Source: Escherichia coli
GTDB lineage: Bacteria > Pseudomonadota > Gammaproteobacteria > Enterobacterales > Enterobacteriaceae
Reading direction: 5' to 3' (one strand)
Assembly: GCF_003790525.1 (NCBI RefSeq)
Contig: NZ_CP033635.1
Length of the DNA stretch: 64,000 nt
Of this stretch, positions 35,683 through 37,388 are shown piece after piece. Under the pieces are notes generated by a model. The model ran no database searches and was not told the origin of the DNA. It worked only from the letters and a program-made list of their open reading frames with translations. The position numbers were made by a program, and so were the translations under genes. Numbering within the stretch: position 1 is the stretch's first letter; every line of letters begins with the position of its first letter.

Positions 35683-35775
35683 GACAACTCCGGCAGGATA
35701 CTAAAGGCCGCAAGTGTAACGCGAATCACGCGGCGGGCAAATATCCGAACGCCAGGAGCGAAGATAAAGCAAAGT

Positions 35776-35803
35776 AAAAAGCCTCGCATTCGGCGAGGCT
35801 TTA
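35776..35803 (-). terminator. intrinsic terminator downstream of cspC
   Basis: Minus strand AAAGCCTCGCC-GAAT-GCGAGGCTTT followed by TT. Confidence 0.7.
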
Positions 35804-35847
35804 TAGCGAGATTGAAGCGTATTCACACTTCAGATCAGTGGATTCGA

Positions 35848-36057
35848 TCAGATAGCTGTTACGTTAACAGCTGCCGGACCTTTCTGGCCGTCCTGAATTT
35901 CGAACTCAACGTTCTGACCTTCAGCCAGAGTTTTGAAGCCATTACCCTGGATAGCGGAGAAGTGTACGAACACGTCTTTGCTGCCATCAGCCGGAGTAAT
36001 GAAGCCAAAACCTTTAGACTCGTTGAACCACTTAACCTGACCTTTAATCTTTGCCAT
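35848..36057 (-). CDS. cspC: cold shock-like protein CspC, 69 aa
   Basis: Full-length ORF; [22 protein letters not shown]... with RNP motifs. Confidence 0.97.
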
Positions 36058-36069
36058 TTGAAAAATTCC

Positions 36070-36213
36070 TTAGATTGTTTTCTTCGCCCGCAGGCATAAC
36101 ATAGATAAAACTGACACATTACTGCATGAGGCACCAATATAAGGCTCGGCAGAGAAGCGGTATTCAACGTCAACGTGTTTACTCAGGACTTCTTTACTGA
36201 AAATGCCACACAT
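36070..36213 (-). CDS. yobF: small protein YobF, 47 aa
   Basis: Minus-strand translation [47 protein letters not shown]; ends 12 nt upstream of cspC (yobF-cspC operon). Confidence 0.82.
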
Positions 36214-36882
36214 AAACAGAACTGTACCTCGTTTAACCCGAAATCTGTTATCACATACAACGTTAATTATGGCAAGCCATTTTTAAACATGTCTCGATCA
36301 GACGCACAAATCTCGATACGTCTTCCACTTTTTTTGCACACTTATGCAACGGAATACGCGCCGATATATCATTGTGCTTAACCTTGCCAGTTCAGGCAGA
36401 TACTTAAACTGACGTATTTTCTAACATAGTTCAATAAGTTCAGTTGTTCCATGCCAATGGGAGAAGTTATTACATAGTGCGTGCAATATCACATTTTCTG
36501 CTATGCAATGAATAAAAAGTTATATCACTTTTTCTCATAAAACAGTCAGTTAACGGCCATCAATCACCCCAAAGAGAAGTCAATCGCCAAAGGTATTGTA
36601 AATTTAAAATAAGAAAAATTGATGAATGCGCAAAAAAATCAAGAGAGAAACGTTTCGCTAATAAATAATACCACGCTTAATCACAAATCCGATGTAAACA
36701 TCCTAATAAATTAATGGGCTAAATATCTTTTTCTGATATCCCGTTACGCAAATAAATAATATGATAATTATTTGAAGTCAGACCAGAGTTTTAATTTGAA
36801 GCAGTTGCACCATGACAGTGCGTATAATCAGGATGAATTGAGTAACCCTTCAACGACGGGGTTACTCAAGATTGAGGAAGGA

Positions 36883-37170
36883 TTATCGTTCGGCGACCAG
36901 ACGAATAATATCTTCGTCTTCAACCGATTTTTGACTCTCAACGGTCTTTTTATCTGCTTTCTCAGGTTCGTTTGCTTCGCACAAACGACGTAACAGAGCA
37001 TTTTGACGTTTTTGCTGATCCAGCAACGCCTCAAGCAGTTCAATCTGTTCGTTAGTCCGTGAACTGGCACGATTGATAAAAAACCACAAGATAAGCCCGA
37101 TAAAAAGAACCACCACCGATACAACCAAAGACGCAATGTTCATCACGCCTGAATTTACAACTTCGTTCAT
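36883..37170 (-). CDS. yebO: small membrane protein YebO, 95 aa
   Basis: Full-length ORF; N-terminal TM helix; recognised YebO sequence. Confidence 0.9.
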   Translation of the reverse strand: MNEVVNSGVMNIASLVVSVVVLFIGLILWFFINRASSRTNEQIELLEALLDQQKRQNALLRRLCEANEPEKADKKTVESQKSVEDEDIIRLVAER

Positions 37171-37244: not shown

Positions 37245-37388
37245 TCACCACGGGATAAACTGGTTAATGGCACAAATTCCGCTGAAAAATTGTACATCCT
37301 GATCGCACATCATGTTGAATACCTGCGCCCAAAGCAGCAAGCAAGCCAACACCACGACAACCAGAACGACCCATCGAAACTTTTTCAC
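37245..37388 (-). CDS. mgrB: PhoQ feedback inhibitor MgrB, 47 aa
   Basis: Minus-strand translation (GTG start) [46 protein letters not shown]; GGAG upstream. Confidence 0.88.

Follow-up and report, generated by a model that had tools for sequence, protein, structure and literature searches.

CspC is an RNA chaperone with effects on stress responses and RpoS-linked phenotypes as well as on Salmonella virulence and the use of succinate, and the yobF-cspC operon to which it belongs is controlled by at least two small RNAs. The short leader of yobF, which starts at the promoter called P1 below, is a reported target of the small RNAs OxyS and CyaR, which act on its ribosome-binding region. A map of RNA 5′ ends gives exactly two starts for yobF (Kim et al. 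2012, PMC3415461, supplementary file 2), and in Salmonella 4/74 the yobF-cspC start was located 546 nt from an insertion inside cspC (Wenner et al. 2024). The same study, a screen for growth on succinate, yielded rbsR and cspC null mutants together with insertions in the yobF-cspC leader. The authors explained the rbsR effect via RpoS; the palindrome described here is not mentioned, and rbsR and cspC were left unconnected. At the rbsD promoter, the LacI-family protein RbsR binds the operator rbsO, whose sequence was used as given in bioRxiv 10.1101/2025.04.02.646877 and was also read in the rbsD promoter of K-12.

The region analysed here is the 669-bp gap between the yebO stop codon and the yobF start codon in a 64,000-nucleotide stretch of Escherichia coli DNA (contig NZ_CP033635.1), which as a whole is called the window. 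Over its whole length the window shares 99.99% identity with E. coli SMS-3-5, and the 1.45 kb around the gap show 100% identity to several complete genomes. K-12 MG1655 differs from the window across the gap by 12 substitutions and 0 indels, and K-12 coordinates therefore carry over exactly (NC_000913.3 = window + 1871378; NC_000913.2 = window + 1869402). The original prediction, which was made from the letters alone, had called the gap AT-rich and the largest of the window, and both statements are borne out: the G+C content is 35.4% vs 50.1% for the window, with a minimum of 27% at 36600-36799, and the next largest gaps in the SMS-3-5 annotation measure 428, 421 and 395 bp. The annotations of K-12 MG1655 (RefSeq), SMS-3-5 and nine further individual strains leave the gap empty, and the genome match tables show yobF and yebO alone in the matched stretch, barring an IS1 in one strain. 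Complete genomes have the gap in 5410 of 5426 cases at 97.5-100% identity. A few genomes are without most of it (one, for example, at 17% coverage), and in one E. coli strain (NZ_CP135595.1) an IS1 is inserted between yobF and yebO. Among 11 diverse E. coli, positions 36150-36351 are invariant, and 36352-36832 hold 41 variable columns, which are densest at 36550-36599.

We read the gap, end to end, as the 3′ end of mgrB-yebO followed by an unusually long modular control region of yobF-cspC (~480 bp), and assign this reading a probability of about 0.78. The gap is an ordinary regulatory region, mostly in public datasets already though absent from genome annotation. A conserved control region with multiple sites explains the size of the gap, and no hidden gene need be invoked for the 669 bp. 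The features are collected in Table 1.

Table 1. Features in and around the yobF-yebO gap (window positions).
Feature	Position	Strand	Details
mgrB	37245-37388	-	first in local order mgrB, yebO, gap, yobF, cspC
yebO	36883-37170	-	YebO confirmed by Pfam
Gap	36214-36882		669 bp, between yebO stop codon and yobF start codon
3′ hairpin of mgrB-yebO transcript	36838-36869	-	arms 36838-36848 and 36859-36869; AUUCAUCCUGAUUAU
Escherichia-specific AT-rich spacer	36690-36837	.	about 27-36% G+C; unalignable outside Escherichia
Distal conserved module	36596-36690	-	TTTGTGAT 36680-36687; TGgTATTAT 36665-36673; palindrome; degenerate CATTCATCAATTTTTCTTATTTT 36606-36628
LacI-family palindrome (putative operator)	36644-36659		AGAGAAACGTTTCGCT; 15/16 positions vs RbsR operator core AGCGAAACGTTTCGCT
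Middle conserved block	36478-36514	-	inverted-repeat motif, family consensus GCATAACTATGCAC-AAAATG
Promoter P2	36416-36455	-	-35-like TGGAAC 36446-36451; 17-bp spacer; -10 TATGTT 36423-36428 after C
First 78 nt of P2 leader	36338-36415	-	P2 start to stationary-phase 3′ end
Conserved inverted repeat	36334-36349	-	TTGCATAAGTGTGCAA; family consensus GCATAAnTGTGCA; contains the 36338 end
Block upstream of P1	36290-36311	-	ATTTGTGCGTCTGATCGAGACA, nearly invariant; pattern ATTTGTGCG-N3-GATCGAGACA
Promoter P1	36240-36275	-	-35 TTGCCA 36270-36275; 17-bp spacer; -10 GATAAC 36247-36252
P1 leader of yobF	36214-36239	-	26 nt; Shine-Dalgarno GAGG 36227-36230
yobF	36070-36213	-	ATG 36211-36213; Pfam: DUF2627 family for YobF
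cspC	35848-36057	-	3′ of yobF, same strand

For comparison, 80 loci of other species were collected via YebO, and yobF and cspC were located in each; the counts of conserved islands given below refer to 77 gaps. Gap lengths fall into two classes, 590-745 bp vs about 1510-1580 bp, and the ~480 bp adjoining yobF have a common set of islands in both, each at an unchanged distance from the yobF ATG. Across about 75 species of Enterobacteriaceae, P1, P2 and four more islands are conserved in sequence and in their spacing to yobF, and the sequence between the islands is unalignable and free to vary.

The hexamers of P1 and P2 were picked by reading the sequence, and their starts were taken from the 5′-end map of Kim et al. 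(2012). Both promoters have the layout of sigma-70/sigma-S promoters, with hexamers 16-18 bp apart and an RNA 5′ end 6-8 nt downstream; consensus matches of the sigma-70 type as such were not above chance (3 vs 2.8 expected). Transcription from P1 starts at 36239 (K-12 NC_000913.2 1905641, 249 reads; PMC3415461), and the same two hexamers were named by an RpoD SELEX study (PMC3946193). The P1 core was found in 76 of the 77 gaps, and the 26-nt leader behind it is invariant in 74. A published ChIP-seq region of sigma-S RNA polymerase (36145-36382) includes P1, to which it was assigned, and excludes P2. RpoS holoenzyme gave a SELEX peak at 36366, an intergenic probe was preferentially transcribed in vitro by sigma-S polymerase, and several RpoD-holoenzyme peaks lie in the yobF-yebO spacer (PMC3946193). 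RpoN holoenzyme was additionally reported with a SELEX peak at 36250, and yobF-cspC mRNA was reduced under nitrogen limitation. Upstream of P1, the block ATTTGTGCG-N3-GATCGAGACA occurs in 73 of the 77 gaps, 95-97 nt from the yobF ATG; its core TGTGC-N6-TCGAG has its centre at -61.5 relative to the P1 start and matches the CRP consensus at 6/10 positions. CRP-dependent promoters carry TGTGA-N6-TCACA at -41.5, -61.5 or -72.5. The expectation that upstream sequence and leader of yobF-cspC lie in the gap proved correct.

The second start, P2, lies at 36415 (K-12 NC_000913.2 1905817, 107 reads; Kim et al. 2012, PMC3415461), 176 bp upstream of P1 on the same strand, and produces a leader of 202 nt. 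Its motif, CTA[TA][GT][GT]T, is found at equal distance, about 217 nt upstream of the yobF ATG, in 67 of the 77 gaps. Only a distal start of the P2 type fits the distance of 546 nt reported for Salmonella 4/74. Term-seq places a 3′ end on the minus strand at 36338 (K-12 1907716, 264,852 reads; Adams et al. 2021, PMC7815308), which was classed there as 'orphan', 125 nt upstream of the yobF ORF. It is present only in the LB OD 2.0 sheet, i.e. in stationary phase, where its reads amount to about five times those of the yebO 3′ end, and the end has no Rho score, since Rho was analysed in the LB 0.4 sample, which lacks it. The end sits within the small inverted repeat, at no recognisable terminator. 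On the plus strand, no Term-seq ends were found at K-12 1907500-1908099 (window 36122-36721). A further 3′ end of the minus strand lies inside yobF at 36101 (K-12 1907479; LB OD 0.4 and M63; Adams et al. 2021), 44 nt upstream of the cspC start codon, and could mark attenuation or processing of yobF/cspC.

With P2 as its start, the 36338 end implies a 78-nt RNA, which would be a candidate short RNA or a product of premature termination. The original prediction had suspected a hidden small RNA in the gap, and transcript maps containing only the yobF-cspC leader and the yebO terminator had been named as the outcome speaking against it; as P2 and the 36338 end are found in addition, the maps are strictly not of this kind. 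The stationary-phase end would give a 78-nt RNA, and this extra RNA is a product of the long leader and not of a separate gene. That the gap would be an independent gene for a trans-acting small RNA of ~78 nt, expressed in stationary phase from P2 to 36338 and pairing with other mRNAs, appears quite unlikely to us. Such a gene would have its own mapped start site, an orphan 3′ end with the abundance and growth-phase specificity given above, and RpoS-holoenzyme binding nearby, but the RNA lacks a terminator hairpin with a U tail, and its fold is no better than that of shuffles (z = +0.25). Its segment moreover carries 7 polymorphic sites in 78 nt among 11 E. coli, the sequence is unalignable among genera and has no shared structure, an Rfam match is absent, and P2 also makes the long yobF leader. 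Of the features expected of an Hfq-type base-pairing small RNA, only the promoter is present; terminator, conserved sequence or structure and an Rfam match were not found.

The 36338 end would arise by promoter interference or attenuation. By ChIP-seq, sigma-S polymerase is bound at P1 at the growth stage in which the 36338 end is seen, and the 202-nt P2 leader reads across P1. Transcription from P2 would be stopped or processed before the occupied P1 region and leave the 36338 end.

The remaining islands between P1 and the distal part of the gap share a constant position. The inverted repeat around the 36338 end is shared by 56 of the 77 gaps, always 132-134 nt away from the yobF ATG, and another block with an inverted repeat is placed some 290-305 nt upstream of this ATG. 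The middle block of Table 1 includes a CRP-like site (36478-36493) with 8/10 matches and its centre at -70.5 relative to the P2 start; CRP-like matches in the whole window are not above chance (204 found vs 228 expected). yobF was listed as a predicted CRP target by SELEX (PMC3105977). Between the P2 start and the block upstream of P1 (36311-36415), the segment measures 104-108 nt in each of the 22 folded sequences and 96-109 nt in six more distant ones. Its length is kept even though its sequence cannot be aligned and varies between AT-rich and GC-rich. Folding of the 216-nt P2 leader was indistinguishable from shuffles, and a consensus fold of the P2 leaders from 22 genera (RNAalifold) returned four invariant pairs only, those of the inverted repeat at 36334-36349, with no covariation and no consensus structure. 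Fixed spacing without a conserved RNA points to a constraint on the DNA, i.e. to protein sites, and we infer from the sequence comparison that the islands are putative protein-binding sites on DNA, operators or activator sites, and not RNA or coding elements.

The most upstream of the conserved parts is the distal module with its palindrome. The latter shows the sequence features of an RbsR operator, namely 16 bp made of the halves AGCGAAAC and GTTTCGCT with a central CG step and 15/16 agreement, and none of 100 shuffles of the window contained a site with one mismatch or fewer to the RbsR operator. The PurR and Cra operator consensuses agree with the palindrome at only 10/16 positions. Its core CGAAACGTTT is present at the syntenic place in 70 of the 77 gaps, and the right half is degenerate in most genera (GTTTTTAT). 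An extended -10-like element (TGgTATTAT, 36665-36673) ends 5 nt before the palindrome, compared with 7 nt between the corresponding element and rbsO at K-12 rbsD. By its sequence, the palindrome is predicted to be an RbsR-type operator of the LacI family, and the upstream promoter that the distal module may contain is a guess. The 5′-end map of Kim et al. (2012) has no start site near the palindrome, perhaps because RbsR would shut the promoter in the absence of ribose. The operator would probably repress a ribose-responsive upstream promoter with TGgTATTAT, like rbsO does at rbsD. The palindrome is 236 bp away from P2 and 412 bp from P1, and is therefore too far for simple occlusion of either.

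Some further observations concern the sequences around the palindrome and at rbsD. A direct repeat (CGTTTCGCTAATAAATAATA, 36651-36670; CGTTACGCAAATAAATAATA, 36742-36761) is identical at 18/20 positions with the copies 91 bp apart, and the first copy includes the right half of the palindrome. In the K-12 rbsD promoter, rbsO is preceded at about 75 bp by another operator-like element (TGTAAAACGTTTCGAGG), which adjoins a CRP-like TGATCACA. Outside Escherichia (about 60 loci), the distal module is far better preserved and contains CGAAACGTTTT, followed by the 17-bp inverted repeat TGCCTn7AGGCA and then GTCAT-N7-TTCATTATTTTGGTGCA, whereas the E. coli module is degenerate and has kept the LacI-type palindrome alone. 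Symmetric changes in this 17-bp repeat, were it a palindromic protein site, could not be told from RNA pairing. Sites for NtrC, PhoB, sigma-54, sigma-E, Fur, IHF and CytR were considered for this module and rejected, as the resemblance is partial and degenerate in E. coli; in other genera it includes a pho-box-like GTCAT-N4-nTTTCAT and an NtrC-like half-site TGGTGCA.

Two modest leads emerge from the control region, a new one in the conserved operator of the ribose-repressor type and a second one in the stationary-phase RNA from P2. The operator is the most concrete testable site, since Salmonella genetics place rbsR and cspC in one phenotype. That yobF-cspC is a direct, ribose-responsive target of RbsR, and that the 78-nt P2 product could serve regulated attenuation or be a small RNA, is a tentative proposal that we consider possible but rather doubtful. 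If yobF-cspC were a target of RbsR, the rbsR mutants, the cspC mutants and the leader insertions from a single Salmonella screen would be explained, and sugar sensing would be tied to the RNA chaperone CspC.

At the opposite end of the gap, the mgrB-yebO transcript closes with a hairpin that begins 13 nt after the yebO stop codon. The hairpin had been noted before as a 10-bp stem at 36840-36868; the structure is real and its stem has 11 bp (36838-36869), with 100% complementarity, 5 G-C pairs and a loop of 10 nt. Its fold beats 200 of 200 shuffles (z = -2.9), it is free of polymorphism among the 11 E. coli, and other genera have different hairpins at the equivalent position. Term-seq located the primary yebO 3′ end at K-12 1908212/3 in LB OD 0.4, LB OD 2.0 and M63 (Adams et al. 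2021, PMC7815308, supplementary file 1), which is 36834/5 in the window and 3-4 nt past the stem. Because these ends are seen in three conditions, the hairpin is the working 3′ end of mgrB-yebO and marks the end of yebO as foreseen. A canonical terminator was not found by a consensus scan: the stem is present, the loop exceeds the 3-8 nt needed, and no U tract follows. The yebO end could be formed by a non-canonical terminator or by trimming up to the hairpin, and may in the latter case be an exonuclease-trimmed end that the hairpin protects. A separate start was mapped 19 nt upstream of yebO (37189, minus strand, K-12 NC_000913.2 1906591, 32 reads; Kim et al. 2012); since it exists besides the mgrB promoter, yebO may also be transcribed alone.

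Between this hairpin and the distal module lies a lineage-specific, AT-rich segment of about 150-190 bp. It would be lineage-specific filler to which H-NS can bind, and H-NS, for which ChIP had been suggested as a check, was indeed flagged for the yobF-yebO spacer by genomic SELEX (PMC3946193). In 31 of the 80 related loci, a gene of the Lactamase_B_2 (MBL-fold) family with 331-335 aa directly follows yebO and lengthens the gap to about 1530 bp. It was found in Lelliottia, Leclercia, Kosakonia, Phytobacter, Buttiauxella, Cedecea and some Enterobacter and is absent, with no remnant, from Escherichia, Salmonella, Citrobacter and Klebsiella. As the gene lies exactly between yebO and the yobF control region in these 31 loci and the Escherichia-specific filler occupies its position, the AT-rich gap might be a decayed remnant or deletion scar of an MBL-fold hydrolase gene. 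We regard this as unlikely: tblastn of the protein on the gap gave a best E-value of 0.66 over 21 residues, the filler has only about 150 bp, and the other ~480 bp are conserved regulatory sequence that is also found downstream of the gene where it is present.

The gap was also expected to hold a long structured leader of the cold-shock type, and this has to be corrected. The Rfam model of the cspA thermoregulator (RF01766) matches with 137.6 bits (gathering 78) and spans 35773-36233, i.e. cspC and the yobF ORF, and overlaps the gap by 20 nt only (36214-36233). The expected 'long structured leader' thus corresponds to the yobF region and not to the gap, and the main leader of yobF measures 26 nt. 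Within the gap, Rfam gave no match at threshold, and permissive E-values returned only chance snoRNA and psRNA2 families (E 0.5-7.5).

Small ORFs were searched on both strands of the gap, and none is conserved with protein-like constraint. A plus-strand ORF of 22 aa (MQRNTRRYIIVLNLASSGRYLN, 36344-36412) is intact in four Escherichia species and could be taken for an unannotated small protein. It has, however, no Shine-Dalgarno sequence, is absent outside Escherichia, and differs from E. albertii by 11 non-synonymous vs 2 synonymous codon changes. Each remaining ORF of 10 codons or more is interrupted in one or more of the Escherichia relatives, the ORF that crosses the palindrome on the plus strand shifts frame in Salmonella (read from the alignment), and a ribosome-profiling table of small ORFs has no entry at K-12 1907600-1907999. 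A protein encoded in the gap is very improbable.

The locus can be compared with described systems. Like the cspA-family leaders of RF01766, cspC and its upstream leader score above gathering; in contrast to them, the equivalent of the leader is the yobF ORF, outside the gap, and many of the leader pairs are non-canonical. The yebO hairpin shares with intrinsic (Rho-independent) terminators a stable stem right after the stop codon and an RNA 3′ end a few nucleotides beyond, and differs from them by its 10-nt loop, the missing U tract and the lack of a call in the consensus scan. P1 and P2 resemble tandem promoters in which the upstream one reads across the downstream one, in that two starts lie on the same strand 176 bp apart, and they resemble the 3′ ends in 5′ UTRs described by Adams et al. 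(2021) in having a condition-specific end between P2 and P1, upstream of the ORF; different from both, the P2-P1 case is without an intrinsic terminator, and interference is the mechanism we infer. The closest parallel to the distal module is the rbsD promoter with rbsO. Here a stress operon, at a distance of about 430 bp, lies downstream in place of sugar catabolism genes, and one half-site of the palindrome is imperfect and more degenerate in other genera. Both sites share the 16-bp palindrome at 15/16 positions and a -10-like hexamer 5-7 nt upstream, so that in the gap, as at rbsD, the operator would cover the start site.
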